Source: a virus (Duplodnaviria > Caudoviricetes). Taken from it: a stretch of 64,000 bases of DNA. The position numbers were made by a program, and so were the translations under genes. The stretch is from IMG/VR virus record IMGVR_UViG_3300025437_000009; one strand, given 5' to 3'. The notes under the pieces were generated by a model. The model saw nothing but the letters and a program-made list of their open reading frames with translations. It was not told the DNA's origin and ran no database searches. Positions 11,548 to 42,639 of this stretch are shown here, one piece after another; positions within the stretch are counted from its first letter, which is position 1, and the number at the start of each line of letters is the position of its first letter.

Positions 11548-11817
11548 TTTAAAAGAAAAAATAGTATTTGGGAAAAAATAGTTAAAAATATAAACACATT
11601 AGCTGATCGATATGGCGGGTATTCCTGTATACAAATAAACACCGTACTACAACGTGACAATATCAATCATTTATTAGAACTAGGGCAATGGATAGAAAGC
11701 ACAGGAATCACACGCTGGACATTGTCCGAACTTGGCCCAACCCTTGGATTTAATCCAATTGGCCAATATCATTATCAAAATTGTGAAAAAAGTAATAGTT
11801 CCGGAAGAACTATTTAA
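11548..11817 (+). pseudogene. Remnant of a radical SAM gene (C-terminal barrel fragment, no start codon)
   Basis: Open frame right after the 11547 stop reads FKRKNSIWEKIVKNINTLADRYGGYSCIQINTVLQRDNINHLLELGQW, resembling the W..V.KN...I.INTV....N segment of the flanking enzymes; no CxxxCxxC. Confidence 0.6.
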
Positions 11818-11868
11818 ATTATCGATAGTATCAACAAATATAAAAAGTGTAAACTTACTTAAAAAAAT

Positions 11869-14552: not shown

Positions 14553-15525
14553 AAATCTACGTAGTGTACATTTAGAAATTAGCAGCCGTTGTAATGCTGC
14601 TTGTCCAGATTGCCTGCGTAACTTTCGTGGTGTTGATGTGATGGATACATATCCTGTATGTGATATGACTCTAGATCAGTTCCAGCAGATTTTTACTCAA
14701 GACTTCCTACAGCAATTACAGCATTTCACAATTAATGGTAACTACGGTGACTTTGTTACAGCACGTGACGGTCTAGAGATTGTTGAGTATATGCTCAAAG
14801 TTAATCCCAGGATTCAGGTAGAAATCAGCACAAATGCTAGTGCAAGACCAAAGTTATGGGAACCCCTTGGTCGATTGGGTGTAACTGTTTACTTCCGTTT
14901 AGATGGACTAGCAGATACGCATCACTTATACAGACAAAATACAGACTTTAATTTTATTTTAGATAACGCCAAGAAATTTATTGCCGCTGGTGGCCGTGCA
15001 GTATGGGCAATGATTAAGTTTGATCATAACGAACATCAAATTGATGAATGTAAGCAAATGTCCCAGGATTTGGGATTTGATCGTTTTGATCTAGTAGATG
15101 CTGGTCGCAATACAATGCCAGTGTTTAACAGCGAACGTCAACTGACTCACACAATTGGCAATTGGCAGGGTAGTACAGACTTTGACAAATTGTTTACATC
15201 TTATTCTTACTATAAAATAGAACCTGATATTGCTATACGCAATGAGACTGAAAATCGTACAGTAGACTGCTATGCTAAACGTCAGCAAGAAATTTATGTA
15301 GCCAGCAATGGGGAAGTGTACCCTTGCTGTTGGTTAGGTTACTATCCTTTGCATAGTAACGCAAGACCCAGTAACATACAATTAAAACCCCTAATCAAAA
15401 ACAACAATGCACTAGAATACGGATTAGAAACTGCCATTGGATGGTTCAATGCTATAGAAGAAACTTGGGATCGTACAGTACCCGAGGGAAAAATTTATGA
15501 GTGTAATAAAACCTGTGGAAAATAA
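14539..15525 (+). CDS. Radical SAM protein with C-terminal SPASM/Twitch-like domain
   Basis: CNAACPDC near the N-terminus; C-terminal DCYA..GEVYPCCW..ECNKTC. Confidence 0.9.
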   Translation: MLQYKNLRSVHLEISSRCNAACPDCLRNFRGVDVMDTYPVCDMTLDQFQQIFTQDFLQQLQHFTINGNYGDFVTARDGLEIVEYMLKVNPRIQVEISTNASARPKLWEPLGRLGVTVYFRLDGLADTHHLYRQNTDFNFILDNAKKFIAAGGRAVWAMIKFDHNEHQIDECKQMSQDLGFDRFDLVDAGRNTMPVFNSERQLTHTIGNWQGSTDFDKLFTSYSYYKIEPDIAIRNETENRTVDCYAKRQQEIYVASNGEVYPCCWLGYYPLHSNARPSNIQLKPLIKNNNALEYGLETAIGWFNAIEETWDRTVPEGKIYECNKTCGK

Positions 15526-16732
15526 CTTACCTAAAACAATTTGTATGCTACCGTGGGTTAGTATTGAAACTAGCCCACTAGGTACTACACGTCCTTGCTG
15601 TTTGGCTAACGATGAGATTGTAGATGATACAGGTCGCAAGTATGATTTAAACGAAACTAATCTTGAAGTTATATATCATAGTGAGTATATGCAGGATCTG
15701 CGTCGTCAGTTTCGTCGGGGAGAAAAACCAGAAACTTGTAATCGTTGCTGGACTGAAGAAGCCGCAGGACGTGATAGCAAACGCATACATACACAAATTC
15801 GTTTAAAAGAATTATATCAACAGGTGGACTGGGCCAATGACAATCCTGATCAACTATGGTTTGTTGACTTAAAACTGGGTAATATTTGTAATCTTAAATG
15901 TCGTATCTGTGGATCATGGTCCAGCAGTAAGTGGGCCGAAGAAGAAATGAACTATGTTAAGGCTCATACTAATCCCAAAGAACACATTGCCTACACTTGG
16001 TTAAAGCAAGGTGCTTGGCCACGTAAGACAACAACCTTTTGGGATAACCTACGTGAGTTATTACCTAATATCCGTTACTTTGAATTTACCGGTGGCGAAC
16101 CTTGGATGATACAAGAACATTTTGATCTATTACAATACGCTGTGGATCAAGGTTACAGTAAAAACATTGACATACACTACAATACCAATGCTACACAAGA
16201 TCCTTTACCACACGCAGAATTATGGCATCAATTTGGACGTGTGGATATTGCATTTAGCATTGACAACGTAGGCGATCGTTTCGAGTACGAACGCTATGGC
16301 GCTGACTGGCAACGTGCAAATGAAATAGTTGATGAAGTTCATACCCTACGTGACGGATATGGGTCCAACATTACTACACAGTTATGCTTTACTATCAACA
16401 TACAGAATGTGTACTACCTAGATGAATTGTTGGCCTGGGCAGATACCAAACCCTGGACCAGCATATACTTTAATATGTTACACGACCCTAGTTATATGAA
16501 TATACAACATATGACTCCTCAAGCACAGGAACTTGTGTTAAACAAATTAAAGAAAATTTTTTGGGCTAACAAGTTCTATCAAAAAGAAATTGATCGAGTT
16601 ATACAGTTTATTGAAAACGGCTCGGGTAGCGACGGCGAACGATTCTTGTTTGAAATGAAACGCACTGATGCGTATCGTAAACAAAACTTCGCGGACACAC
16701 ATCCAGAAATAGCTAGGACTATGGGATATTAG
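15497..16732 (+). CDS. Radical SAM protein with N-terminal auxiliary Cys cluster
   Basis: CNLKCRIC, TGGEPW; ICMLPW..RPCC..CNRCW. Confidence 0.9.
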   Translation: MSVIKPVENNLPKTICMLPWVSIETSPLGTTRPCCLANDEIVDDTGRKYDLNETNLEVIYHSEYMQDLRRQFRRGEKPETCNRCWTEEAAGRDSKRIHTQIRLKELYQQVDWANDNPDQLWFVDLKLGNICNLKCRICGSWSSSKWAEEEMNYVKAHTNPKEHIAYTWLKQGAWPRKTTTFWDNLRELLPNIRYFEFTGGEPWMIQEHFDLLQYAVDQGYSKNIDIHYNTNATQDPLPHAELWHQFGRVDIAFSIDNVGDRFEYERYGADWQRANEIVDEVHTLRDGYGSNITTQLCFTINIQNVYYLDELLAWADTKPWTSIYFNMLHDPSYMNIQHMTPQAQELVLNKLKKIFWANKFYQKEIDRVIQFIENGSGSDGERFLFEMKRTDAYRKQNFADTHPEIARTMGY

Positions 16733-17965
16733 ATGATTAAGAAATTAATTACTCGATCTAGATATGAATCGTTTGCAGGTTCGTCTTGGCCTAGCTACGA
16801 AGAATTTCAAACCGGTAATTATAATTCCAATTCAAATATACAAAAAGAAATTGACGAGTTTATCAAGTTGATGCATGATGAATTAAAATTTTTAGATAAT
16901 ACAGAAATAAATTTAAAAACTTCAGAAACAAGTAGTTGGCAAACTAAAGAACGTCCCTTAACATGGAACATAGTAAATCATGATTTATTGTATAAAAGAA
17001 AAATAAAAAACTTACCGTCTAGTAAAAGCGGAATACAAACAGTTTGTTCTAAACCGTTTAGCAATATTTCAATTGATTTTGATGGTCGTATTTTTTTATG
17101 CGATTGCCCAGGCTGGTTGCCTTTTCCTGTGGGACACGTGACAGAGTTTAACTCAGCAGCTGAAGTATTTGATCATCCCACAGCAATAGAGATACAAAAT
17201 TCTATCTTAGACAAAATTTATAATTTTTGTGATGTCGACACCTGCAGACTGCCAAAAGACGGTTCAACAACGATCGTCCGTAGTCCCGTTAGGTTATACG
17301 TTGGTATAGATAAAAGTTGTAATTTAACTTGCCCTAGTTGCAGAGAACGTCCGTTGTTTTTCAAAGAAGGTGAAGAAGTGGAAAAACGTAAAAAATGGGC
17401 TGACCATATATGTAATTGGATTACAGCTGATCAAACAAAGTCTTGGACTATTATAATTGGTGCCGACGGAGATCCTTTTGTTAGTTATGTATACGAATAT
17501 CTATTAGAAAAGTTGCAATTATTAAACAATATAACTTTTGAATTTATGACAAACGGGTTATTTTTAAAAAGACAGTTAAGTAAGTTAGCTCCAGAGTTTT
17601 TATCTAAAATTAAATCAATCAATGTAAGTATTGATGCAGCCACAGAAGAAACATATAAAATAATTCGACGTGGCGGAAATTGGAAACACCTAATAGAAAA
17701 TTTAGAATATCTACAGGAAATATCAATCAGCAATAATATACAAACTGTTGGAAATTTAATTATACAAGAGGGCAATTTTACAGAAGCCGTTGGGTTTGTT
17801 GACTTATGCAAACACTATAACATGAAACCAAATCTTACATTGATTGAAGATTGGGGAACTTGGCACGATTTTGCAAAACATGCGGTGCATCATTCAGACC
17901 ACCCTCGATATAGCGAATTTGTTAAAGTATTTTCTGATTCAAAATTACAATTTTTTAAACCATGA
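16733..17965 (+). CDS. Radical SAM protein (AT-rich, divergent member)
   Basis: CNLTCPSC, GDPF, SIDAATEETY.IIRRGG.W; VCSKPF..FLCDC..FC...C; extra N-terminal WPSYEEF segment. Confidence 0.88.
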   Translation: MIKKLITRSRYESFAGSSWPSYEEFQTGNYNSNSNIQKEIDEFIKLMHDELKFLDNTEINLKTSETSSWQTKERPLTWNIVNHDLLYKRKIKNLPSSKSGIQTVCSKPFSNISIDFDGRIFLCDCPGWLPFPVGHVTEFNSAAEVFDHPTAIEIQNSILDKIYNFCDVDTCRLPKDGSTTIVRSPVRLYVGIDKSCNLTCPSCRERPLFFKEGEEVEKRKKWADHICNWITADQTKSWTIIIGADGDPFVSYVYEYLLEKLQLLNNITFEFMTNGLFLKRQLSKLAPEFLSKIKSINVSIDAATEETYKIIRRGGNWKHLIENLEYLQEISISNNIQTVGNLIIQEGNFTEAVGFVDLCKHYNMKPNLTLIEDWGTWHDFAKHAVHHSDHPRYSEFVKVFSDSKLQFFKP

Positions 17966-19254
17966 ACAAACCAGAAACACTATGCATGGCTCCGTGGACT
18001 CATACTTATTTGAGTCCACAAACAGAAAGACGTATGTGTTGTGCGTCGCGTGAACCAGCGCAAAACTTTGAGCAGTACATAGACACATCCAGCGGAACTG
18101 GTCGTTACATTCCTGTAACATTAGATGAACATTGGAATAGTGAACATATGAAAAGTGTGCGACAACGCATGATGGCTGGCGAAACATTGCCCGAGTGCGA
18201 AGTATGCAATGATAAGTTGCTCAATACTGACATTTACCGTAGTTATTTTAACCAGCTGTTTGGGCATAAGTATTTACAAGCCATGGAGCAGACTGATGCC
18301 TCAGGCTACACGACAATGAAGCCAGTATCGTGGGATTACAGATTTAGCAACCTTTGTAATTTTAAGTGCCGCATGTGCGGTGACATGTTGAGTAGTGCTT
18401 GGGAGAGCGAGCAGAAACAACACGGGATGATCGACTTGACGAATCCAAAAAATAACTGGATGCGTCCTGAAGTCAAGGTAGAAATAGAAAAGTTTCAAGA
18501 CACCCAGGTAGAGCAAGAGTTTGCTACTGCTGTTGAGGAGCACCGAGTGGAAGAGGTGTATTGGGTGGGAGGTGAGCCGTTAATGTACGAACAGCACTGG
18601 CGTTACATGAAACGGATTATTGAACTTGGAGATGGAAAAAATGTTTACGCTAGATACAACACTAATCTTAGTCGCATCAATTATCGCGGTATCAATCTGT
18701 ATAGGGATATTTTATCTGGGCTACGTGACTGGCAAATCTGCGCAAGCATCGATGGCACGGGCCGAATTGGAGAGTATATTAGAACAGGTCTTAATTTTGA
18801 TGAGTGGCTTAAGAACATCACTGAAGGACTTGCGTACAGCAGTCACCGCCGCCAAATCCGTTTGGACTTCACTCTTACTACACCAGGACTCTTTGAAGTT
18901 CAAAAGATACAAGAACTCGCGCAAAAACTTGGAGTAGACGTTTTAGCAAAGGTGGTGTTCTCTTTTTCACCGGACATTGTTATGTCACCGCTAGCACTAC
19001 CTAGGGAAGTATTACATCCTTGGATAGACGAAATCTTGCACACCATTGATAAAGGTGCCCTACACGACATATTAGTCCAACTGAAAACTAGACCCACTTT
19101 TGCTGAACAATGGCCCGACACGTATCAAACAGGACTCCAAAAGGGCAAACGCCGCATATTAGAACTTGAAAAAATTCGAAAAGACCAGTATACTTTTAGA
19201 GATATTATGGCTCTAAGACCACAAGTACTGGAATGGTATGACTCAATCAATTAA
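17962..19254 (+). CDS. Radical SAM protein with N-terminal auxiliary Cys cluster
   Basis: CNFKCRMC, VGGEPL; LCMAPW..RMCC..CEVC. Confidence 0.9.
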   Translation: MNKPETLCMAPWTHTYLSPQTERRMCCASREPAQNFEQYIDTSSGTGRYIPVTLDEHWNSEHMKSVRQRMMAGETLPECEVCNDKLLNTDIYRSYFNQLFGHKYLQAMEQTDASGYTTMKPVSWDYRFSNLCNFKCRMCGDMLSSAWESEQKQHGMIDLTNPKNNWMRPEVKVEIEKFQDTQVEQEFATAVEEHRVEEVYWVGGEPLMYEQHWRYMKRIIELGDGKNVYARYNTNLSRINYRGINLYRDILSGLRDWQICASIDGTGRIGEYIRTGLNFDEWLKNITEGLAYSSHRRQIRLDFTLTTPGLFEVQKIQELAQKLGVDVLAKVVFSFSPDIVMSPLALPREVLHPWIDEILHTIDKGALHDILVQLKTRPTFAEQWPDTYQTGLQKGKRRILELEKIRKDQYTFRDIMALRPQVLEWYDSIN

Positions 19255-20323
19255 AGTAGTACTGCGAAATCCTTTAAATTATAATGACCAAATTGATTAT
19301 ACAATTGAATCTTTTGATCACGAGTTATCGCATGATTGGATACAAGCACTCAAGGGACTACTACAGTCAAAAAACCTATTAGAAAAAAATTACTGTTTTA
19401 TGGGTTTTCCTAAAACAGCTCGCACATTAGAATACCTATGTGGAGAAGTAAATCTAGCAGCGGCAACTATAAACAATTTTTTCAGTGACTATCGAATTGA
19501 GGAAGTATATACTCCCGATAATGTAGTTGGATTTGACTACGCTGACCATGGTGTAAATCATGAGATGTTAAATACTCTACATAATCATTTTGAAAGACTG
19601 CAAGGAACTGTTTGGAATTTAAGTGATTATTATCGTCGGGCCGATTACGATACAAAGTACGCAATACGTCAATTGAATAATCTATGTCACGAAATAGAAA
19701 ATTTAATTCTCAGCAAACGTAAAGAACGAGAATTACCTTATTGGGTTCGTCCGAGCCAAATTACTACATTCATTAACAGTCCTCGATTAGATTTAAAAGA
19801 CTCGCATAGGCAAGGATTTGTTACCAATGGTTATAACCGTGTGCTAGGTGGAGTTTATATGCACTGGACACAGATAGGCAAAACTCTATATGAAGTATTC
19901 CGAGATGAACATGCTCCTAAACTAACTGACACAGTATGCGAAGCTATTACAGAATTACGCTACTACTCAGGAGAATTTGATGTAGAGTGGGGCAATGATG
20001 TAGTACTCAATGGTGGACATCCGTGGCATGATCGAGAACAAGAAGATTTTTGTTATTGGTTAATGGCCAATGGGCGCGATCCACTAGATCCCAAACTAAG
20101 TTTGGGATATTTGCCACTGGGACAGATAAAGTTATTGGAAAGTTTTGGCACCACTGATTACAAGGAAATTTGGAATACCTTGTCCGACCATTTGGACATT
20201 TATCAAATTGAAGTAGATGGAGTTGTAAGTACGTTTGACTACTGCTGGACTGACAGCAACTACAAGCAAATGCAAATTGACATGATGAAACCTGGATATG
20301 ATTACAGTTCTCGCCGGGGGTGA
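19238..20323 (+). CDS. Hypothetical protein
   Basis: 361 aa ORF overlapping both neighbours; no motif recognised. Confidence 0.75.
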   Translation: MTQSIKVVLRNPLNYNDQIDYTIESFDHELSHDWIQALKGLLQSKNLLEKNYCFMGFPKTARTLEYLCGEVNLAAATINNFFSDYRIEEVYTPDNVVGFDYADHGVNHEMLNTLHNHFERLQGTVWNLSDYYRRADYDTKYAIRQLNNLCHEIENLILSKRKERELPYWVRPSQITTFINSPRLDLKDSHRQGFVTNGYNRVLGGVYMHWTQIGKTLYEVFRDEHAPKLTDTVCEAITELRYYSGEFDVEWGNDVVLNGGHPWHDREQEDFCYWLMANGRDPLDPKLSLGYLPLGQIKLLESFGTTDYKEIWNTLSDHLDIYQIEVDGVVSTFDYCWTDSNYKQMQIDMMKPGYDYSSRRG

Positions 20324-20846
20324 TAGTTTCGTTTGGGGCAGTGAGTTAGCTGATAGCCCGCATGGTGGAGCTGATGGCTTTAGTAAGCAGACATTTACTG
20401 CCCTACTAGGGGATCGTTATATCTGTGCCGCATACCCAGGGTTGGGCAATAGGGAAATAGCTTATCGTGTAAGAGATGCCCTAATATACACTCGCCCAGA
20501 TATTGTTGTAGTTTGCTGGACTTGGCCTGGTAGAGATAATATGTTGGATAGTGATCACTACATAAAAGGACTGCAAGCACACCTGGTTTATCATAATATT
20601 CCTTATATGTTTACCTGTGCTGACAACTGTGTTGTAACAGGTAAATTGGATTACGATAATTGGTACATGTTCCCACCAGGACAAGAGCTATGGGAAACCA
20701 CACAGCCAAGAGGTTTTTATCAGTGGGCAGTAGAGAATAAATACCCTGTAGGACCTGAACATCATCCACTAGAATTAGCACATCAAGATGCTGCTAAATT
20801 AATGAAAGAAAAATTCAATGCAATGGTTAAAAAATCTATACAATAG
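20298..20846 (+). CDS. SGNH/GDSL-fold hydrolase or O-acyltransferase-like protein
   Basis: GGDSF..G, YPGLGN, C-terminal HHPLELAH. Confidence 0.6.
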   Translation: MITVLAGGDSFVWGSELADSPHGGADGFSKQTFTALLGDRYICAAYPGLGNREIAYRVRDALIYTRPDIVVVCWTWPGRDNMLDSDHYIKGLQAHLVYHNIPYMFTCADNCVVTGKLDYDNWYMFPPGQELWETTQPRGFYQWAVENKYPVGPEHHPLELAHQDAAKLMKEKFNAMVKKSIQ

Positions 20847-20919
20847 AATAGTCTTAGAAATACGTTATCGCAAAAAACTAAAAGAGTTGCGTAAGCGAGA
20901 TCCATTTATTTACAAATGA
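20818..20919 (+). CDS. 33 aa basic peptide MQWLKNLYNRIVLEIRYRKKLKELRKRDPFIYK
   Basis: Below the ORF-track cutoff; fills the gap between two SGNH genes and overlaps the next gene in an ATGA junction. Confidence 0.65.
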   Translation: MQWLKNLYNRIVLEIRYRKKLKELRKRDPFIYK

Positions 20920-21455
20920 TATTAGTCAACGGCGATAGTTTTACCTATGGTGAAGAAAGTTCTATTGCTTGGCCCAATTTGATTGCTAATACCGTAAACA
21001 TAGCGGAATCTGGCTATAGCAATGATGCTATCGTTAGGACGACTGTGAATTCAATTGAATCTTGTTTGTTATCCGTTGAGTATGTTATTGTTGCATGGAC
21101 TACCCCAAACAGAATAGAAGTTAACGGCCAGCATCTAACTCCGCATAGTCATAGAAAGTACGGATCAATCTGTGATTATGTATTTTTAGACTGGAATGAA
21201 CAGTGGGCTACTGCAAAATTCCGTACACAGGTTGCACTATTAGATGCTTATATAAAAAGCAAAAGCATACCTTACGTTTTTATTAGAACTTTTGATGTTC
21301 CTGAAACTACAGTAGGAAATTGGATGCCGGGTAGTATAGTAGAATGGATGGGCGATTGTCCCAAAGGCCCGGGCGGACATCCGCTAGAACTTGGACAAGT
21401 AAGAATAGCAGAACATGTCGAAAAATATATTAGGAATCTCGGCTGGCTTCCATGA
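20916..21455 (+). CDS. SGNH/GDSL-fold protein
   Basis: NGDSFTYG, GYSNDAIVR, GGHPLELGQ. Confidence 0.6.
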   Translation: MILVNGDSFTYGEESSIAWPNLIANTVNIAESGYSNDAIVRTTVNSIESCLLSVEYVIVAWTTPNRIEVNGQHLTPHSHRKYGSICDYVFLDWNEQWATAKFRTQVALLDAYIKSKSIPYVFIRTFDVPETTVGNWMPGSIVEWMGDCPKGPGGHPLELGQVRIAEHVEKYIRNLGWLP

Positions 21456-22896
21456 TGCCGCCGCAACAGTAATTAACCAAGGTGAGATCTTATATGCTGG
21501 ACACGCAGAGCGTTACAGTAAGATTAAGAATGACCCTAATTTGCATGAAGCAATGTTTTGGGAGTTTAGTCGTGGGCGACACATTGATCATATTGCTTAC
21601 TACGAAACTCCTTGGAAGAAACAGTTGCGTCAACTGTACTCAGGACAAGGCATTGAGTGGAACAAACTAACTACCCGTCAAGTTTTAAAGCAACAATTAC
21701 GGGGATTCTTTGATAATGTTCCAGTATCGACACACAGTCATCATCTAAGCCACACAGCAGCAGGATTCCAAACAAGTCCATTTAAGCGTGCCACAGTGGT
21801 AGTAATTGATGCTATAGGTGAATGGGACACTATCTCAATTTGGGGAGCAGAGTACATAAACGGCCGGGCTCAATATAAGAGCTTATGGCGTCAACGTTAT
21901 CCTCACTCAATCGGATTATTTTATACAGCAATGACTCAACGGGTGGGATTGAAACCCATGGAAGATGAGTATATTCTAATGGGAATGGCCGCATATGGTC
22001 GTCCTACTGCTACTACGTTTATAAAGAATGCAGTCATTGAAAATGAATGGGATCTAACATTTAAACAAAATCTACATGCGGGACTAGATGATACCTTTTT
22101 AGTTGGAGTCCCAAACGAAGAAATTGCCAGTTCTAGCCAGACCTTTTGTGAAAATTTGATATATAATGTTATACGTCGTGCTAAAGAATTTGGCTGGAGC
22201 ACGAATTTGGTATACCAGGGCGGTGTAGCCCTTAATTGTTTAGCTAATAGAAATCTTGGTGAATATTTTGAAAACGTTTGGATCATGCCTAATCCTGGTG
22301 ATGCTGGTAGCTCTCTTGGCGCAGCCGCTCTCGCCTACGGAGGCCCGATTGATTTTAAAAATGCGTTCCTCGGTACAGACATTAGCGGCAACTATCCCGT
22401 CAATGCCCTCCTTGATAGTTTACTCACAGATAAAATCGTTGGAGTTGCTTCCGGACGTGCAGAATTTGGACCCAGAGCCCTTGGAAACAGAAGTCTCCTC
22501 GCCGACCCTCGCGGACCCAACATAAAGGATCGAGTAAATGCAATCAAACGACGTCAAGAATTCAGACCATTTGCGCCAGTCATTTTGGAGGAGCATGTAC
22601 GTGATTATTTTGACATGCCTCCTGGTTTCGTTGATACTAGGTATATGCAAGTCATCGGTCATTGTAGGCGTCCTGACTTATTTCCTGCTATCGTTCATCA
22701 TGACGGGACTAGTCGTATACAGACAGTACCAGCTGATGGTTCGGGAATCCGAGAACTATTAGAAAAATGGTATGTAGTAACAGATTGCCCTATGTTACTG
22801 AATACTAGTCTTAATATCAAGGGCGAGCCAATGGTCAATGATCGTGCGGATGCAGATCGATTCGAAAAACTCTATAATGTAAAGGTACACTCATGA
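21415..22896 (+). CDS. Carbamoyltransferase, NodU/CmcH/TobZ family
   Basis: Kae1-like HDAAA, HHLSH, IDAIGE, GGVALNC; C-terminal GRAEFGPRALGNRS, RPFAP, DGTSRIQTV, LLNTSLN. Confidence 0.93.
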   Translation: MSKNILGISAGFHDAAATVINQGEILYAGHAERYSKIKNDPNLHEAMFWEFSRGRHIDHIAYYETPWKKQLRQLYSGQGIEWNKLTTRQVLKQQLRGFFDNVPVSTHSHHLSHTAAGFQTSPFKRATVVVIDAIGEWDTISIWGAEYINGRAQYKSLWRQRYPHSIGLFYTAMTQRVGLKPMEDEYILMGMAAYGRPTATTFIKNAVIENEWDLTFKQNLHAGLDDTFLVGVPNEEIASSSQTFCENLIYNVIRRAKEFGWSTNLVYQGGVALNCLANRNLGEYFENVWIMPNPGDAGSSLGAAALAYGGPIDFKNAFLGTDISGNYPVNALLDSLLTDKIVGVASGRAEFGPRALGNRSLLADPRGPNIKDRVNAIKRRQEFRPFAPVILEEHVRDYFDMPPGFVDTRYMQVIGHCRRPDLFPAIVHHDGTSRIQTVPADGSGIRELLEKWYVVTDCPMLLNTSLNIKGEPMVNDRADADRFEKLYNVKVHS

Positions 22897-23243
22897 CAGA
22901 GGTTGAACTAATTCAAGAAAAACAAAAACATATTTGGGCAAATGAAATGGCTTCATTATACTCACAAATTATTGTGAACGGAATTTATAACTCAGAAGAC
23001 TTTGGGTACCAGGAAAGAGAAGAGATAGCTGCCTACGTAAGTTTTAAAAATAAATGCGTGTATTGTTTTAAAGGCCACAAAACTGATAAAACGCTTAGTA
23101 TTGAATTAAGAAAGCTGATAGACGATTTATATAGTGGTAAAAAACAGGTTGATATAAATGATAACGATAAACTAATCGAACAAATTATTTATATTATTGG
23201 ATTTTTAAATTTTGTTAATTTTGTATTAAAGGCATATCGATAA
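22893..23243 (+). CDS. Hypothetical protein (AT-rich)
   Basis: Overlapping start/stop junctions on both sides. Confidence 0.55.
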   Translation: MTEVELIQEKQKHIWANEMASLYSQIIVNGIYNSEDFGYQEREEIAAYVSFKNKCVYCFKGHKTDKTLSIELRKLIDDLYSGKKQVDINDNDKLIEQIIYIIGFLNFVNFVLKAYR

Positions 23244-24082
23244 TGACACAACGTATTTTAATTATGGGCCTTCCAGGCTCGGGCAAAACAACATTGGCCG
23301 GCGCTCTTAAAAAATATCTTGAAGAGCACGGTGAGATTAGCTATGCTCGTGCTACTCGTGAAATGATTGGCAATTTTAATTGTGAAGTAAATTGGTTCAA
23401 TGCAGACGATATTCGACGCAAGTACAACGACTGGGACTTCTCAAACGATGGACGTATTCGTCAGAGCCTGCGTATGTTTCAATTCAGTATGGAATCGGGC
23501 GGAGACTATGTGATCTGTGACTTTGTGGCACCCTTGGTTGAGATGCGCAACAACTTCAAGGCCGACTGGACCATCTGGATGGATACCATACGTGAAGGAC
23601 GATATGCAGATACTAATGCGGCCTTTGTGGAACCCGAAGTATATGACTTCCGTATCACCGAGCAGAATGCAGAAAAATGGGCCGAATTTATTGGCGAACA
23701 TATTATTGAAAATCGACGTCGTCCTACGTTTGATTGGAAGAAAGAAACTGTACAGATGTTGGGACGTTGGCAACCATGGCATGATGGACACCGCGCACTA
23801 TTTGAACGTCTAATACAACGTACAGGGCAAGTAGTTATTCAAGTACGTGATGTACAGGGTTGGCAAGGATCTAATCCATTTGAAATTGACAAAGTTAAAT
23901 CTTTTATACGCAGAGATTTAGATCCCATCTATCAAGGACAGTATGAAATACAAGTAGTACCTAATATTGTACACATTGGTTGGGGTCGTGGAGTAGGTTA
24001 TACTTCAGGTGAAGAAACATTTGACGATGCAATTACTGATATTAGTGCTACAAAGATACGCAAAGAATTAGGTCTCAAGTAG
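23243..24082 (+). CDS. Adenylylsulfate-kinase-like P-loop domain fused to an HxGH nucleotidyltransferase domain
   Basis: MGLPGSGKTT, NADDIR, DFS.DGR.RQ, CDFVAP; C-terminal GRWQPWHDGH. Confidence 0.8.
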   Translation: MTQRILIMGLPGSGKTTLAGALKKYLEEHGEISYARATREMIGNFNCEVNWFNADDIRRKYNDWDFSNDGRIRQSLRMFQFSMESGGDYVICDFVAPLVEMRNNFKADWTIWMDTIREGRYADTNAAFVEPEVYDFRITEQNAEKWAEFIGEHIIENRRRPTFDWKKETVQMLGRWQPWHDGHRALFERLIQRTGQVVIQVRDVQGWQGSNPFEIDKVKSFIRRDLDPIYQGQYEIQVVPNIVHIGWGRGVGYTSGEETFDDAITDISATKIRKELGLK

Positions 24083-25435: not shown

Positions 25436-27854
25436 GTTTGATGTTTTTTATCAGGGACCAAAACCGGGATTATTTGCTTTCGAGCAACCTGCAGAGTCTC
25501 TTGACGAAGCTGCAAGCAAGAGTAGAACTAGTCACTACTGGTATATTTATGGGGGCAATGACTACACGGGATTTGATTTTGACTATACACCTGTCCCTTG
25601 GGAAACTAGTCACATACATGTCTGGCCTAGTCAATGGCAACAAGATGGCGGGGTATATCTAGCCAATCGACGTACTGTGGCTAACCGTGAATGGCATTTC
25701 CGTACAGAACAACGTGTTGTGAGAATACCAGATGACACTAATTGGACTATTCCTGCATATTTGACCGGTATCGACACCAGTTGGCATCCAGATCCTCACG
25801 AACCTAGCTACGTATATCATTTTCCTAGCCAGTGGCAAAGTGCTAGTGGAGCATACTATACTGTTCCTGGCGCTACTGAAGTTAAGTTGTCAGATCAACA
25901 GATATCTACTGCTATTCCCAATCGTCGGTACTGGCACATACCCGATGAAATCAATCAAGAAGGTGTAGATTTTAGCTGGCATCCCAACGTATTAGATCCT
26001 GCGTACATATACCACTTTGGCACAGACTGGCAGGCCAGTGTTGGCCTAACTTATACAGTCACAGGTGCTACGGAAATTAAGTTTGCTGGGCCCATACCTG
26101 GCGGAGAAAATGCCTTGGAAGTGCAGGACATATTCTTTATAGACAAGGGCAATGATACTGCTACTACACGCTACGAACTGCTACGTGGCAAGTATGGTGA
26201 TCGTGTGACCAAATTACGATATGCCAATAGCCTAATAGACACCATTGCTCGTTGTGCTAATAGAACCACTACAAATAAATTTTGGGTTATCAGCAGTGAG
26301 TACGATTATACTACATTTGATTTTGCGTGGCATGCAGAACCTTGGCAAAGTTTCATGACACACGTATTCCCTAGCCAGCATCAAAAGTGGTCTGACACAT
26401 TCTTAATTAACAAGTGGGAATTTCAACGTCACACAGAGTGGGCCAGCACCTTAGAAGAGTTTCCTAATTTGAACTTTGTAACAGATCAAACAGTAAGCAA
26501 GCCCGATAACTTGCATAACATTTATTATGTCGATCACGGTAATCCTACCAGTCGACATCAGTATGAACTTCTACGTTTATCACACCCTGACATAGTATTC
26601 ACACGTTTTGTAGACAATTACTTAGATACATTTAAACGTATTATGTCGACTGCTACTACAGAATATGTTTGGATCATTAATAGTGTATGTGATTACACCC
26701 AGTTTGACTTTACGTGGCAACCAGAACCTTGGCAACGGGAAATGATCCACGTATTCCCTAGTGACAATCAAGAACGTGGCGATACCTTTTACATACACGT
26801 AGAATCATTTAAAAAACAAATGATTGAATTAGAGTTGTTGGATTGGTTTAATGTAATTAACTATTGTGAAGATCAACGTGTGTACCGTTTTGATATGCCC
26901 GTACATCAATACTACACAGATGACCTGGTATCCGAAATTAAGAACTACAAGTTTGACACTCCATATGTATTGTTTACTAACCAAAAAGATCTACAGATGT
27001 TGGCAACACCCTGCTTATGGACAAAGAAAGATCGAGTTGTAGAACGTTTATCGCCTGCGGGTGCTACCGCGATAGTACCTCGTGATATCAAGGCTGATTT
27101 GAAGACACAAATCTATGATTATCCTTATATTCATGCTGGAAAACCGTGGGTAAACGACTACTTAGGAGGTGAGTTTAGCCTTGACATAGTCTATATCAGT
27201 AACGGAGAACCCGATGAAGAACGTTGGTATGAACATACTTGTGACGTAACCAATTCACGAGTAAAATGGGTTAGGGGAGTAAATGGTCGTACTGCCGCTT
27301 ATCAAGAAGCTGCACGTCAGAGTCGCACACCGTGGTTCTTTGCTGTGTTTGCTAAGTTACAGGTCAATCCAGAATTTCCATGGCATACTTGGATGCCAGA
27401 TTATTTTCAAGAACCTAAACACTATATCTTTAATAGCCATAATCCTGTAAATGGATTAGAGTATGGACATCAGGGTGTTATTGCTTATAACAAGAGATTA
27501 GTATTAGAAAATACAGCACCGGGCATCGACTTTACACTTTCGCAAGCACATGAAGCAGTTCCTTTATTATCAGGTATAGCACATTTCAATCAAAGTGAGT
27601 GGATGACTTGGCGTACTGCTTTCCGTGAAGTAGTTAAATTAAAGCACTTTATGGCTACACAACCAACACTAGAAACCAGTCATAGACTAGCAACATGGAC
27701 AACGGTTGCTGAAGGCGACTTTGCTGAATGGAGTATTCGTGGAGCAGAAGATGCTATTCAGTACTACAATGAAGTGGGTGGGGATTACAATCAGCTCATG
27801 TTGAGCTTTGAGTGGGCCTGGTTACAGGAACGTTTTAACGCAGGTAATTTATAA
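25434..27854 (+). CDS. Large multi-repeat glycosyltransferase-like protein
   Basis: Five DF.W.P.PW....H.FPS..Q-type repeats; C-terminal domain homologous to 9270..10169 (VRGVNGRTAAYQEAA, WRTAFREVVKL). Start may be 25419 or 25434. Confidence 0.7.
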   Translation: MFDVFYQGPKPGLFAFEQPAESLDEAASKSRTSHYWYIYGGNDYTGFDFDYTPVPWETSHIHVWPSQWQQDGGVYLANRRTVANREWHFRTEQRVVRIPDDTNWTIPAYLTGIDTSWHPDPHEPSYVYHFPSQWQSASGAYYTVPGATEVKLSDQQISTAIPNRRYWHIPDEINQEGVDFSWHPNVLDPAYIYHFGTDWQASVGLTYTVTGATEIKFAGPIPGGENALEVQDIFFIDKGNDTATTRYELLRGKYGDRVTKLRYANSLIDTIARCANRTTTNKFWVISSEYDYTTFDFAWHAEPWQSFMTHVFPSQHQKWSDTFLINKWEFQRHTEWASTLEEFPNLNFVTDQTVSKPDNLHNIYYVDHGNPTSRHQYELLRLSHPDIVFTRFVDNYLDTFKRIMSTATTEYVWIINSVCDYTQFDFTWQPEPWQREMIHVFPSDNQERGDTFYIHVESFKKQMIELELLDWFNVINYCEDQRVYRFDMPVHQYYTDDLVSEIKNYKFDTPYVLFTNQKDLQMLATPCLWTKKDRVVERLSPAGATAIVPRDIKADLKTQIYDYPYIHAGKPWVNDYLGGEFSLDIVYISNGEPDEERWYEHTCDVTNSRVKWVRGVNGRTAAYQEAARQSRTPWFFAVFAKLQVNPEFPWHTWMPDYFQEPKHYIFNSHNPVNGLEYGHQGVIAYNKRLVLENTAPGIDFTLSQAHEAVPLLSGIAHFNQSEWMTWRTAFREVVKLKHFMATQPTLETSHRLATWTTVAEGDFAEWSIRGAEDAIQYYNEVGGDYNQLMLSFEWAWLQERFNAGNL

Positions 27855-28941
27855 CAGATTCTGCAACGATTTCTACTTCAGTGTCAGTCAGTTCGGGGTA
27901 GATGGGCAAGCTCAAACACTCTCTACTAAATGCAGTAGATTCTCTAAATAGATCACGAGCATAATCAATATAGTTGTAGCCAACACTTAATTCAAACAGG
28001 GGTTTATCGTAATTGCAACGAGTTTCAATTCCGTGATTGCGCATAAAATCTTTGAGTGTGTGTCTATTAGCAGTTCTAATAACAAACTTTGACCAAGCTG
28101 AATCAACACCAAGTCCGGGTCCTACAATATCAACATATCCATCCAGCTGTTCGATATAGTATTCAGCAATTTCCTGTCTACGTGCTTGCCAGGAATCAAA
28201 GTATTCAAGTTTGACCAGCATGGCAGCACAATCAGCTTCCGACATCTTGCTGTTAGTTCCGTGAGCCTGGTGTCCCATCTTTTTGCCATTGTCACGCAGG
28301 TCCAGTAGATCTTCATATATGCTGTAACTATCTGTCAAGACCATACCACCTGAACCATAGTTGTTTAGATTCTTAGTGGGATCAAAACTCAACACACTGA
28401 TGTGACCTAGACTACCTGAAGGTATTCCTTTGTAGCTAGCACCAAATGATTGTGCAGCATCTTCAATTACTAAAATATCATCGTTGAAAAATTCTGTTTG
28501 TAGTCTAAAACGATCCCAATCTATGACATGTCCAAATAGGTTAGCGTACATGATACAATCTACACCAGCACCGGTCAGCGCGGTATCCATTGACTCCAAA
28601 TCTAATAGAGCACAATGATCAGTATCGCAGAACACAGGGGTATGCCCAGCGTACAGCACACTATTAATAGTGGCAGCAAAACTTAGGGTGGGAATTAATA
28701 CTCGACTTTCGGCTGGGATACAGGCCTGTTGTGCAAAAATTAAACCTTGCGTACAACTGCCCACTGCCACAGCCCATTGGCGTCCACAACGTTGAGCCAC
28801 AGCCTCTTCAAAGGCACGAGTACACGGGCCGTCTAGAACTTGTCCAGTCTGATATACTTCATCCATGGCATCCATGATTTCTTCACGTAGAGTCTTGTAT
28901 TGACGATCAACGCCAAAGAACGGAATCTTTAAGCCACTCAT
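27835..28941 (-). CDS. DegT/DnrJ/EryC1/StrS PLP-dependent NDP-sugar aminotransferase
   Basis: IEDAAQSFG, SFDPTKNL..YGSGG (PLP Lys), CLSLPIYP; probable start MSGLKIPF. Confidence 0.92.
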   Translation of the reverse strand: MSGLKIPFFGVDRQYKTLREEIMDAMDEVYQTGQVLDGPCTRAFEEAVAQRCGRQWAVAVGSCTQGLIFAQQACIPAESRVLIPTLSFAATINSVLYAGHTPVFCDTDHCALLDLESMDTALTGAGVDCIMYANLFGHVIDWDRFRLQTEFFNDDILVIEDAAQSFGASYKGIPSGSLGHISVLSFDPTKNLNNYGSGGMVLTDSYSIYEDLLDLRDNGKKMGHQAHGTNSKMSEADCAAMLVKLEYFDSWQARRQEIAEYYIEQLDGYVDIVGPGLGVDSAWSKFVIRTANRHTLKDFMRNHGIETRCNYDKPLFELSVGYNYIDYARDLFRESTAFSRECLSLPIYPELTDTEVEIVAESVINYLR

Positions 28942-29866
28942 AGTACAGTTGGAAACCTTCTTCAATATCAATTTTTCCGCGATAGCCAAAGTCCATACCA
29001 GCACGAATTGTGCTTAGTGTACCTCGACTAGGAAAACGTGGATTGGCCTCAGCTATTCGAATACGACCATTACCAGCAATTTTAACGGCCAGTTCTGCGG
29101 CTTCCAATAGTGTTCGACCGCTACTGCGTGTGATATTATAAGTACGCCTACTACTGTTAAAACTATTAGTAGCACGTACTATACCTTTTACACAATCATC
29201 TACGTAGGTAAAGTCTAATACTTCATCGGGACCGCATACTACTAATTCTTGATTGCGCATAGCCGCTACCAGGAAACGACTGACCACACGATCTAATACA
29301 TCACGTGGCCCATATACTGCTGAAGGGCGTAGAACAACATGATCTATTCCTGCACGATCACAATGATCACGAGTCAGTTGTTCACCTGCTAACTTAAGAA
29401 TACCGTAAATGCCTTTTGGGGTACACTTCATATCCTCGTAGCCGTAAAGGTCAAAGTCACCATAGACCATACTAGAGCTAACATAAACAAATCTACGTAC
29501 TTTCCAGTATTCACTGGCACGCAATAAATTAATAAGCCCACCAGTTAAGACTTCAGAACCTTCTATGGGATTTAGATCAACAGCCTTGGCGCGAGGATAA
29601 GCAGCACAATGTATAACAATGTCAGGACGGCATTCAGCAAATACTTCTGTCAGTGCTGGATAATCTCTAATGTCAATTTGGTGTATTCGTTTGTTGTTTA
29701 ATCTAGCCAGACGTTCGTTGTGTAGCTGTGTAACCTCTTTTGCAGGTATAGTTCCGCTATAGTCGGTGAGACTATCTATCACACAAACATCATGTCCTTG
29801 ACGTTCAAATTTGGCCACAATGCCGTGACCAATAAATCCAAGTCCACCAGTAACTAATATTTTCAT
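28907..29866 (-). CDS. NAD-dependent NDP-sugar epimerase/dehydratase
   Basis: TGGLGFIG, SSSMVYG, YGILK (YxxxK), DFTYVDD. Confidence 0.92.
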   Translation of the reverse strand: MKILVTGGLGFIGHGIVAKFERQGHDVCVIDSLTDYSGTIPAKEVTQLHNERLARLNNKRIHQIDIRDYPALTEVFAECRPDIVIHCAAYPRAKAVDLNPIEGSEVLTGGLINLLRASEYWKVRRFVYVSSSMVYGDFDLYGYEDMKCTPKGIYGILKLAGEQLTRDHCDRAGIDHVVLRPSAVYGPRDVLDRVVSRFLVAAMRNQELVVCGPDEVLDFTYVDDCVKGIVRATNSFNSSRRTYNITRSSGRTLLEAAELAVKIAGNGRIRIAEANPRFPSRGTLSTIRAGMDFGYRGKIDIEEGFQLYYEWLKDSVLWR

Positions 29867-40132: not shown

Positions 40133-40150
40133 CCAAAATTTGAGCCGTAA

Positions 40151-40176
40151 AAAAACCCCAAAAAAATGGGGTTTTT
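40151..40176. terminator. Intrinsic (possibly bidirectional) terminator
   Basis: AAAAACCCCA-AAAAAA-TGGGGTTTTT hairpin, downstream of the GT4 gene. Confidence 0.75.
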
Positions 40177-40199
40177 GACCGTTGTTTTTTCGCAACAGA

Positions 40200-41192
40200 T
40201 TAGATTTCAGCTAAATTTTCCCGGAATATCCGCCAACATTCTTCCCAAGTCCAATGCTGGCTAGATAGTTTAACTTGTGCCCGATCTAGGGTTAAACATT
40301 CGCGTACAGCCTCTTCTAAATCCCAATCCATGTATCCGTTTACACTCTGTTCGATAATGTCTACGGGTCCTTGCACTGGGAAAGCCGCTACCGGAGTACC
40401 TTGTGCCATTGCTTCAATAATAACCAGGCCAAAAGTATCTGCTTGGCTAGGAAATACAAACACGTCTGCTTGATGATAGTAGTCTACTAATTCTTGCCCC
40501 GATTTATAACCAACAAATGTAGCCCACGGTAACAGTCGACGAGCTTCCTTCATATATGGACCATCACCTACTATAACTAACGTATATTCAGTTGGATCCA
40601 GTTCTGCCAAAATCGCCAGACCTTTTTCACTGCTGACACGTCCTACATTGAGTAGTAATGGTTTCGTACGTTCACAACGTTCTTGGCTAGGTTCAAGGTT
40701 TCTGTTGACTCCGCGTGTCCAAACAACCATGCGTTCAAAGCCATGTGACTCTAAATCCTTTTGTATAGTCTTTGTAGTAACTAGCACACGATGACTGTTC
40801 TTATGAAACCAACGTAGATACCAATAGGTCAGGCTCTTGGGTACCCGATACATTGTCTTTAAGAACTCGGGGAAATCAGTATGATAACTAGTATTATAAG
40901 GAATATGATTGCGCTCACACCACCACCTTGCAAATAGGCCTACAGGGCCTTCTGTAGCGATATGTATAAAATCCGGCTGTATCGCTTTAATTTTCTTACT
41001 GATACCTTGCGGCCAACAGAGACGAACTTCAGGATAGCCAGGGCAAGCAAAATTAGGGAACTGCCCGGGATCAAGATAAACAATGTTATACCCATCACTG
41101 CGAGCACAATCTTCCAAGTTTTTGAAAGTTGTGACCACGCCATTAACTTGATCACGTAAGTTATCCGTTATTACTAGTATTGTTTTTATCAC
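40200..41192 (-). CDS. GT4-family glycosyltransferase, Agt-like (putative diacylglycerol glycosyltransferase)
   Basis: QVNGVVTT, GYPEVRL, PDFIHIATEGPVG, YHTDFP, VGRVSSEKG, DTFGLVIIEAMAQGTPV. Confidence 0.88.
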   Translation of the reverse strand: MIKTILVITDNLRDQVNGVVTTFKNLEDCARSDGYNIVYLDPGQFPNFACPGYPEVRLCWPQGISKKIKAIQPDFIHIATEGPVGLFARWWCERNHIPYNTSYHTDFPEFLKTMYRVPKSLTYWYLRWFHKNSHRVLVTTKTIQKDLESHGFERMVVWTRGVNRNLEPSQERCERTKPLLLNVGRVSSEKGLAILAELDPTEYTLVIVGDGPYMKEARRLLPWATFVGYKSGQELVDYYHQADVFVFPSQADTFGLVIIEAMAQGTPVAAFPVQGPVDIIEQSVNGYMDWDLEEAVRECLTLDRAQVKLSSQHWTWEECWRIFRENLAEI

Positions 41193-41940
41193 TAGATTGC
41201 GTCCATGTTACTATTTCCCAACGGCCGTCCCAATGCTCTACTAACGCTGTCATTGATTCTACCCAGTCGCCATCGTTCATATAAACAACACCATCTATTG
41301 TTTTTATTTCGGCGTGATGTATGTGACCACAGATAACTCCATCAAAGCCACGCTTACGACAGTAACCAGCAAGATTAAGCTCAAACTGAAAAATGAAATC
41401 CACGGACGATTTAACTTTATGCTTAAGGTACTTAGATAGACTCCAATACCCAAAACCAAGACGGTGACGAATCCAATTAAAACGACTGTTAAGGCCAAGA
41501 ATAAAATCATACAATTTATCCCCAAGGAAATTTAACCAAGGTGCTAGTTTACTTATACCATCAAACAGGTCACCGTGTGTAACCAAGTAACGTAGGCCAT
41601 CTAGACCTACGTGCTCGCATTGATTTACTATTTCAACTTGACCAAAGCCCATACCATATGGTATTAGTGGACGGAGAAATTCGTCGTGGTTGCCAGCTAT
41701 ATAAACTACTCGAGTTCCACGTTTAGCGTGACCTAGTATTCGTCTGATAGCATTGGTATGGCTTTGTTTCCATCGCCACTTGTTTTGTTGAATTTTCCAA
41801 GCGTCAATAATGTCGCCTACTAAGTAGAGGGTGTTGCAAGTGTTGTGTTTGAGAAAGTTGTTGAGTTCTTCGGCTTTACAATCGCGAGTGCCGAAGTGTA
41901 TGTCTGAAATAAAAATTGAGCGATAAGTCTTGGCTTTCAT
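41161..41940 (-). CDS. Metallophosphoesterase, PlcP/LpxH-like (putative phospholipase C)
   Basis: FISDIHFG, LVGDIIDAW, GNHDEFLR, THGDLFD, GVICGHIH, NDGDWVES.TALVE; operonic with the GT4 gene. Confidence 0.85.
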   Translation of the reverse strand: MKAKTYRSIFISDIHFGTRDCKAEELNNFLKHNTCNTLYLVGDIIDAWKIQQNKWRWKQSHTNAIRRILGHAKRGTRVVYIAGNHDEFLRPLIPYGMGFGQVEIVNQCEHVGLDGLRYLVTHGDLFDGISKLAPWLNFLGDKLYDFILGLNSRFNWIRHRLGFGYWSLSKYLKHKVKSSVDFIFQFELNLAGYCRKRGFDGVICGHIHHAEIKTIDGVVYMNDGDWVESMTALVEHWDGRWEIVTWTQSSDKNNTSNNG

Positions 41941-41985
41941 AACCATATTTATCGAAACACTCTATTGTATGATGTTACAGAATTA

Positions 41986-42639
41986 TTACTCAACAATACC
42001 TTTTTGATATTTTTGAATTCGCACTAGATCCAGTGGTGGGTTACAGCTAGGTATACGTTGATATTTTTTATAGTATTCTAACAGTAGATCTAGTTCAGCA
42101 GTCTTACAATAACTAGGATGCATGGGCAAATATGCTTGATACACATGATCAATTTGATGCTTACCAAAGTTTTCTTTGAATGCTGTCCCACACCCATATG
42201 GACTCAATCGGGGATTTCTTACAGTACCTTTAAAGTCTGTACGACGACCCAACATACCATTGCGACTGGTAGCTCGAGATTGTCCTATATAAAACACTCC
42301 TTGGTCTAAAAAGTCAGCAGAGTCTGATGGTGCACCATCTAAAAATAATCCATAGACATAACAACCGGGGTGTGCTTTATCAAATCCCCAAGACTTATCC
42401 CATTTCTCGTCAATTTGATGCCATTGAGTAAAGGATGTTAGTGCAGGTCGAGTAAGAGTCTGTGTTTGAGTGGTGAACGCTCCTTTACCGCTGATCTCGG
42501 AACACTTGTATAAACTATAGGCTAACTGATCAACATTTGAACAATGTTTAAATACTTCGTAGAGTTGATCTTCAGTCAGCCCGTGATTACCAGATCCGGA
42601 TCTAATATTTTGTGCTAGTGCTTTGGCTAAGTCGTTCAT
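41986..42639 (-). CDS. GIY-YIG-like endonuclease
   Basis: CYVYGL...FYIGQS...GRR...AE..LL.....IP.CN pattern. Confidence 0.55.
   Translation of the reverse strand: MNDLAKALAQNIRSGSGNHGLTEDQLYEVFKHCSNVDQLAYSLYKCSEISGKGAFTTQTQTLTRPALTSFTQWHQIDEKWDKSWGFDKAHPGCYVYGLFLDGAPSDSADFLDQGVFYIGQSRATSRNGMLGRRTDFKGTVRNPRLSPYGCGTAFKENFGKHQIDHVYQAYLPMHPSYCKTAELDLLLEYYKKYQRIPSCNPPLDLVRIQKYQKGIVE

Follow-up and report, generated by a model that had tools for sequence, protein, structure and literature searches.

A phage-borne plcP-agt gene pair as a putative module for phosphate-sparing remodelling of host membrane lipids

The plcP-agt locus and its phage

Here, we describe a pair of overlapping genes in a 64,000-nucleotide stretch of DNA (hereafter the window) from a tailed phage of the class Caudoviricetes, IMG/VR record IMGVR_UViG_3300025437_000009. 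The first gene, plcP, is predicted to encode a phospholipase C-type metallophosphoesterase, and the second, agt, a diacylglycerol (DAG) glycosyltransferase of family GT4. The features of the locus are as follows, with the length of each open reading frame (ORF).

40149..40198, minus strand: two hairpins 3' of the agt stop codon, the second of which (40151-40176) is an intrinsic terminator
40200..41192, minus strand: agt, predicted Agt-type GT4 diacylglycerol glycosyltransferase, ORF of 330 amino acids with a GTG start
41161..41946, minus strand: plcP, predicted PlcP-family metallophosphoesterase (phospholipase C type), ORF of 261 amino acids, or 259 amino acids if translation starts at 41940
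41946..41953, minus strand: GATAAATA element abutting or overlapping the first plcP ATG, resembling a T4-type late promoter or a -10 element
41974..41990, minus strand: direct repeat GAGTAAT-AATT-CTGTAAC with 7-4-7 spacing and an 11-bp period, 28-44 nucleotides upstream of the plcP ATG

The two genes lie on the minus strand and overlap by 32 nucleotides (41161-41192). Judged from its relatives, the second ATG of plcP at 41940 is possibly the true start, and the GTG start of agt yields an N-terminus matching that of Agt1 from Pseudomonas aeruginosa. Pfam places a Metallophos domain in the plcP product, and Glyco_transf_4 (residues 47-164) and Glycos_transf_1 (residues 169-287) domains in the agt product. 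The terminator hairpin (AAAAACCCCA/UGGGGUUUUU, 40151-40176), with an A-run on one side and a U-run on the other, folds with a ΔG of -18.7 kcal/mol (z = -4.1), a stability that none of 200 shuffled sequences reached; it was not among the matches of a simple consensus terminator scan. The ORFs, their overlap, the Pfam domains, and the folded hairpin bear out a preliminary description of the window, which had reported a metallophosphoesterase gene overlapping a GT4 gene and followed by a terminator. All of the motif strings listed in that description are present in the two products, with one of them misread by a single residue (DIHFG..C.A is really DIHFG...C.A).

The window is part of a large phage, as indicated by tail-fibre and baseplate PHROGs, CobS/CobT-like genes, thyA, a large glycan-tailoring cluster, and its relatives in IMG/VR. 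The CobS-like ATPase encoded there has its closest counterparts in jumbo phages, PA5oct, Phosso, and Atu_ph07 among them. The guanine-plus-cytosine content of the plcP-agt cassette equals that of the phage. DNA nearly identical to the window is present in several freshwater metagenomes, and no RNA run was among the sequencing runs listed as carrying it. A megablast search of the region against cultured phages gave no match, and there are no tRNA genes within the 64-kb window.

Family assignment of the two enzymes

Reference sequences for PlcP and Agt1 were taken from two PLSDB records that are really chromosomal (L123, CP090106.1; and L124, NZ_CP137508.1), and the LpxH reference was that of Escherichia coli K-12. 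The Sinorhizobium meliloti record labelled pSymB is 3.72 Mb long and contains sinI/sinR, so it is the chromosome; we take the homolog beside sinR/sinI to be SMc00171. The P. aeruginosa "plasmid" of 96 kb contains the cyaB-agt1-plcP region of the chromosome, in which the homolog adjoins a GT1/GT4 gene and the cyaB cyclase gene. In P. aeruginosa, PA3219 is PlcP and PA3218 is Agt1 (PMC8528852).

The phage phosphoesterase shares 55% identity with PA3219 over 238 amino acids and 45% with SMc00171 over 245 amino acids; for comparison, the identity between PA3219 and the other characterized PlcPs is only 46-47%. Its similarity to E. coli LpxH is 24% over 123 amino acids of the N-terminal half (E = 3e-5). 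Against the LpxH equivalog models (TIGR01854/NF003743), it scored 31.2 bits for a cut-off of 190.35 and 41.8 bits for a cut-off of 134, with only the N-terminal half aligned. No NCBIfam model reached its own cut-off for either the phosphoesterase or the glycosyltransferase. In a maximum-likelihood tree, two LpxH sequences are split from 57 PlcP-like sequences with 100% support and a branch length of approximately 10, and the phage PlcPs form a clade (Shimodaira-Hasegawa approximate likelihood ratio test, 93) inside the PlcP side of the tree, alongside PA3219 and SMc00171.

The putative metal-binding residues, judged by conservation (D15/H17, D45, N86/H87, H124, and H208/H210), are invariant across 27 homologs, and the motifs DxH, GD, GNH[DE], H, and GHxH are intact. 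Where LpxH of E. coli and that of Parasalinivibrio read GNRD, the phage protein reads GNHDE, and the C-terminal blocks of the two families differ. The blocks specific to PlcP, namely GNHDE, YWSLS..LK, DGVICGHIHHAEI, and NDGDWVES, are all found in the phage protein. Three alphaproteobacterial genomes with a homolog have no true LpxH, and one Vibrionaceae genome encodes both a real LpxH (344 bits) and a PlcP-like paralog (35 bits). An AlphaFold (AF2) model of the phage protein has a predicted local distance difference test score of 83.6 and contains a helical insertion at residues 130-200, corresponding to the lipid-binding lid. The nearest solved fold is LpxH, with a template modelling score of 0.51-0.56 normalized by the model and 16-21% sequence identity. 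The modelled LpxH-like fold with a helical lid suggests that the protein acts on a lipid, as LpxH does, while belonging to the PlcP family.

Taken at the sequence level, the phosphoesterase is a member of the PlcP phospholipase C family and not LpxH. The preliminary description had called it PlcP-like and named phylogeny against true LpxH as a check; the tree, the identities, and the GNHD motif put the phage protein with PlcP. The automatic annotation of the Joint Genome Institute (JGI) and GenBank names the homologs UDP-2,3-diacylglucosamine hydrolase (LpxH), and this identity is contradicted by the sequence tests for the phage protein.

The phage GT4 is 39% identical to P. aeruginosa Agt1 over its full length. 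Agt1 is a monoglucosyl-DAG (MGDG) synthase that makes monoglucosyl-DAG in E. coli. The SAR11 glycosyltransferase GTcp is defined by a His104-Asp256 dyad, two motifs (GRVAxEKN, FPSxTDTFG), and a Gly-rich motif; H104, T162/R163, and W320 contact DAG, and mutagenesis has shown these residues, the dyad, and the motifs to be essential (Wei et al. 2021, PMC8231724). The phage protein contains QVNGVV (G18), EGPVG (G82 and G85), YHT (H104), TRG (T159 and R160), GRVSSEKG, FPSQADTFG (D252), E260, and a conserved Trp in HWTWEE. On a mapping that rests on these motif contexts, G18, G82, G85, H104, T159/R160, R185/K190, D252-G255, E260, and W314/316 are the counterparts of residues whose replacement by Ala inactivated GTcp. 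The Trp column (W314/W316) is invariant in an alignment with Agt1. The catalytic dyad of the phage protein is His-Asp, with D252 in place of the Glu usual in GT4.

In each of five alphaproteobacterial genomes, the best match of the phage GT4 was the GT4 adjacent to plcP (236-267 bits, full length), and the next GT4 scored at most 101 bits. There is no curated hidden Markov model for Agt, and GT4 is a very broad family. By four tests (identity to Agt1, best matches in five genomes, the His-Asp dyad, and the residues predicted to bind the UDP-sugar and DAG), the second protein is assigned as an Agt-type GT4 orthologous to Agt, in keeping with the earlier suggestion that it is Agt-like.

A viral GT4 subclade of 26 sequences (e.g., in the related loci L044, L054, L061, and L004) has FPSxWETFG, in which Glu replaces the Asp of the dyad. 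The window's own GT4 retains Asp. The D256E substitution in SAR11 GTcp cuts activity by more than 90%, so the Glu-type viral enzymes may use another sugar donor or acceptor.

Distribution, gene pairing, and the upstream region

A PlcP approximately 80% identical to that of the window is encoded on at least 598 IMG/VR contigs, the longest of which is 367 kb. Among cellular proteins, the nearest share 50-59% identity and are mostly from Alphaproteobacteria; 108 of 301 sampled alphaproteobacterial genomes have a PlcP homolog. We counted gene pairing in 80 fetched IMG/VR loci, of which 76 were informative and four were too short to judge. The plcP gene is followed by a GT4 gene in 50 of the 80 and by a GT2/GT21-like gene in 24, with neither in two, so that a glycosyltransferase follows plcP in 74 of the 76 informative loci. 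GT4 follows plcP in 20 of 37 loci from outside IMG/VR, which comprise three phage-database records and 34 loci from the genome collection, a few of the latter being probably misbinned virus. Bacterial plcP genes likewise have either agt downstream or another glycosyltransferase of the type that makes di- or triglycosyl-DAG (PMC4796936). That plcP is retained with glycosyltransferases of two unrelated folds is the strongest of the indirect arguments that the phage must both produce DAG and glycosylate it.

Among related loci, the sequence of plcP is conserved at approximately 80% identity, compared with approximately 50% for the GT4 gene, and the flanking genes differ between most of them. The viral GT4s form one clade apart from cellular Agts (100% support) and the viral PlcPs also form one clade, which fits a single capture of the operon. 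No Agt-type GT4 was found in the cultured phages of the collection.

In the 24 loci with the alternative partner, GT4 is replaced by a GT2 of approximately 237 amino acids that also passes the Pfam GT21 threshold (L056:4913-5620, L057:4752-5465, L063:4916-5638, L099:4867-5580, and 20 more). The GT21 family is that of the processive enzymes that glycosylate DAG (Pgt in Mesorhizobium and Agrobacterium). A gene for a RimK-like ATP-grasp ligase lies between plcP and the GT4 gene in L038 (4755-5549) and L053 (2069-2959) and directly after plcP in L116 (4720-5634). Speculatively, this ligase might alter the head group of the glycolipid, such as through amidation of glucuronate. One thought was that KGADG of Burkholderia is conjugated to an amino acid, which could account for the ATP-grasp gene; it was dropped, since KGADG is the keto form of glucuronosyl-DAG (GADG). 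A 5.6-kb contig binned in a Lake Mendota Bacteroidia metagenome-assembled genome (L004, JBIIVF010000148.1) contains plcP-agt with a GT4 nested deep in the viral clade, and is probably a misbinned phage contig; a 2.7-kb Competibacteraceae contig (L005) may likewise be misbinned phage.

An alignment of the regions upstream of plcP in the relatives revealed two conserved blocks amid diverged sequence. The first is a direct repeat, YTGTAAY-N4-YTGTAAY, whose 7-4-7 spacing and 11-bp period are the layout of a Pho box, and whose TGTAAT half-site is one base from TGTCAT. This repeat is present in 42 of 68 non-redundant plcP upstream regions of related phages, compared with 0.003 occurrences per 100 nucleotides elsewhere in the same loci, and some relatives have more canonical TTGTCAT half-sites. 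The window copy at 41974-41990 is one of only two matches (at most one mismatch) to TGTAAYN5TGTAAY in the 64 kb. The repeat is a good candidate for the operator of a PhoB/OmpR-type regulator.

The second block is the element near the start codon. Most related loci, and also Pelagibacter phage Mosig, have it as (C)GATAAATA or GGTAAATA 5-12 nucleotides before the start. No Shine-Dalgarno sequence precedes the plcP start, and thus the plcP mRNA may be near-leaderless. In most relatives, a small ORF of approximately 52 amino acids, ending in ...KPF..KWTVVQI, lies directly upstream of plcP (e.g., L039:3791-3949); it is not present in the window. In L039-L046, the leader of the small ORF itself contains a TTGTCAC half-site along with the TGTAAY repeat in inverted orientation.

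Two cultured phages encode LpxH-annotated homologs that belong to the PlcP clade, Mosig_00120 of Mosig (49% identity to the window PlcP) and QPX48289 of Synechococcus phage S-SRM01 (36%). Unlike the window gene, neither has an adjacent glycosyltransferase gene. In Mosig, the plcP homolog is transcribed divergently from pstS. The TTAACA-type repeat occurs five times between these two genes (L001, 4842-4991), in two cases with 7-4-7 spacing (TTTAACA-AAAA-CTTAACA), and AATAAATA precedes the ATG. The isolation host of Mosig, HTCC1062, does not have plcP; this cultured phage would be a ready experimental system.

Proposed pathway and alternative explanations

We propose that plcP and agt form a translationally coupled phage operon that was captured once from bacteria, has spread in a large group of freshwater jumbo phages, and serves phosphate-sparing lipid remodelling, and we regard this as the probable explanation of the locus. 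Family membership, intact catalytic residues, operon structure, conservation, and pairing are established directly. By analogy with the bacterial pathway, the phage probably strips phosphate from the host membrane during infection. PlcP, as a Mn-dependent enzyme with a helical lipid-binding lid, would cleave phosphatidylethanolamine, phosphatidylglycerol, and phosphatidylcholine of the inner membrane into DAG and phosphorylated head groups, and host phosphatases and metabolism would convert the latter to phosphate that supplies nucleotide synthesis. Agt would add glucose or glucuronate from UDP-sugars to DAG to give MGDG or GADG, and this glycolipid synthesis would avert a build-up of DAG and keep the bilayer intact until lysis. 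Through the Pho-box-like repeat, expression may respond to the phosphate-starvation regulator of the host.

The physiology suggested in the preliminary description, in which the phage would mine membrane phosphate, backfill with glycolipid, and perhaps alter receptors, gains indirect support from the near-obligatory pairing of plcP with a glycosyltransferase gene, the Pho-box-like repeat, and the position of Mosig plcP next to pstS. A rough estimate makes such a supply plausible: with about 5 x 10^5 phosphorus atoms in a 240-kb genome and some 10^6 to 10^7 phospholipid molecules in a bacterial cell, lipid could provide for several to tens of phage genomes.

The closest known system is the bacterial PlcP-Agt pathway, represented by SMc00171 of S. 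meliloti, MED193_17359 of Phaeobacter, PB7211_983/960 of SAR11 strain HTCC7211, PA3219/PA3218 of P. aeruginosa, and BCAL2364/2365 of Burkholderia cenocepacia. Both phage proteins are orthologous to those of this pathway (45-55% identity for PlcP and 39% for Agt), and the gene order and coupling (plcP, then agt), the catalytic and substrate-binding residues, and an upstream repeat with Pho-box spacing are also shared. In contrast to the bacterial loci, the window operon resides on a lytic-type jumbo phage and not in a cell, and the phage PlcPs and Agts each form their own clade. The phage repeat is TGTAAY and not TGTCAT, and it abuts a phage-type TAAATA element. Furthermore, related phages have a GT2/GT21-like gene in place of agt or an added ATP-grasp gene.

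Cyanophages offer a second comparison. Work by Zeng and Chisholm in 2012 reportedly found that cyanophage pstS and phoA are controlled by the host PhoBR system. As in these phages, the window has a phosphate-starvation gene derived from a host and carried by a large myovirus, with a candidate PhoB-type site lying upstream. Unlike pstS and phoA, which concern external uptake, the window cassette would target an internal phosphorus pool, the membrane lipid, and its second enzyme would repair the membrane.

Several observations weigh against the proposed phosphate-sparing role. A scan with the canonical E. coli Pho-box consensus gave a score of 9/14 for the window, equal to background, and the repeat could bind a phage regulator instead. 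The TAAATA element resembles a late-phage promoter, and if the genes are expressed late, hardly any time would remain for lipid phosphate to be channelled into DNA. With Mosig PstS as a tblastn query, neither the window nor the 80 related loci yielded a pstS gene or any other phosphate gene. The related loci are not independent samples of one another. In addition, S. meliloti PlcP acts on zwitterionic lipids only, so that the substrates proposed for the phage PlcP are tentative.

The same two enzymes may instead benefit the phage through the altered membrane and not through phosphorus, for example by superinfection exclusion, by changed receptor or porin function, by shielding the infected cell against antimicrobial peptides, grazers, or defences that target membranes, or by control of lysis timing. 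We consider this alternative rather unlikely. The late-type TAAATA element next to the start codon speaks for it. Glycolipids are known to alter antibiotic sensitivity and membrane protein content in bacteria (PMC8528852, PMC9804370) and susceptibility to grazing (PMC9457565), and the free swapping of the glycosyltransferase partner among relatives (Asp-type GT4, Glu-type GT4, or GT2, with or without ATP-grasp) suggests that head-group identity matters. However, the most conserved part of the module is plcP (approximately 80% compared with approximately 50% for GT4), the upstream repeat has Pho-box architecture, and Mosig pairs plcP with pstS and has no glycosyltransferase gene nearby.

The pair could also act elsewhere than on bulk phospholipid, with the phosphoesterase cleaving another phosphodiester or pyrophosphate lipid or a nucleotide, and the GT4 feeding glycan tailoring or decorating a glycan of the virion or cell envelope. 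The window does contain a glycan and amino-sugar system of approximately 24 kb with many transferases, GT4 is very broad, and all NCBIfam matches were below cut-off. Nevertheless, both proteins are orthologous to characterized lipid enzymes and keep the predicted DAG-contacting H104, R160, and Trp, the plcP-glycosyltransferase synteny is that of bacteria, and the cassette has a control region and a terminator of its own and is separated by approximately 9 kb from the glycan cluster, which is on the other strand; we judge this explanation improbable. Least probable by far is that the pair consists of a true LpxH and a lipopolysaccharide (LPS)-core glycosyltransferase, together an auxiliary LPS-biosynthesis function. 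The JGI and GenBank names, the nearest solved fold, and the filing of "lpxH" under LPS biosynthesis in virome papers speak for it. LpxH and the window PlcP do share the metallophosphoesterase fold and a helical lid between the HGD and GHxH motifs, but the window PlcP falls in a separate paralogous clade (the split with 100% support), scores below the equivalog cut-offs, aligns at 24% over the N-terminal half with a C-terminal half that BLAST cannot align, has GNHD and not GNRD, and has another genomic partner. Moreover, its homologs are the sole LpxH-like gene in the Alphaproteobacteria searched, and an extra paralog where a real LpxH exists.

We found no description of a phage PlcP-Agt pair in the literature searched, in agreement with the earlier remark that the pair had not been characterized in a phage. 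Virome papers list viral "lpxH" under LPS biosynthesis, and a 2025 virocell study noted that little is known of lipid remodelling in infected cells. The enzymes and their pathway are already known; the carrier, the abundance, and the modular variants are new. More tentatively, and with somewhat less than even confidence, we suggest that freshwater jumbo phages carry a widespread and hitherto unrecognized modular class of auxiliary gene in which plcP is combined with an interchangeable head-group enzyme (an Asp- or Glu-type GT4 or a GT2/GT21-like gene product, sometimes with a RimK-like ATP-grasp gene) under a Pho-box-like operator switched by the host regulator, that the phosphorus passes into phage DNA, and that the "lpxH" of virome surveys is plcP.

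Phosphorus limits both lake bacteria and phages that build very large DNA genomes. If the phosphate-sparing role is correct, infected cells in phosphorus-poor lakes have their phospholipids turned into phage-specified glycolipids, with the phosphorus passed to phage DNA, and their lipid make-up, and possibly their surface properties too, are altered. The known phage phosphate genes (pstS, phoA, and phoH) act on uptake, and a route through membrane phospholipid with subsequent repair would differ in strategy. Viral plcP is abundant (at least 598 contigs). As it is systematically misannotated as LPS biosynthesis in auxiliary-gene surveys, its re-reading changes the interpretation of virome data. 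E. coli, which is without both enzymes, offers an easy test of their activities.

Directly upstream of plcP lies an ORF of 217 amino acids (41986-42639, minus strand) with no Pfam hit, whose stop codon is inside the first half-site of the upstream repeat. It is missing from the closest relatives, L038 and L041, in which an ABC-ATPase/GNAT gene directly precedes plcP, and it looks like an inserted mobile gene. Further away, the segments 10162-24082 (plus strand) and 27835-29866 (minus strand) contain a run of radical SAM/SPASM genes, a Nol-type carbamoyltransferase gene, an adenosine phosphosulfate kinase-like gene, a DegT aminotransferase gene, and an epimerase gene, which together are a large sugar-tailoring system.

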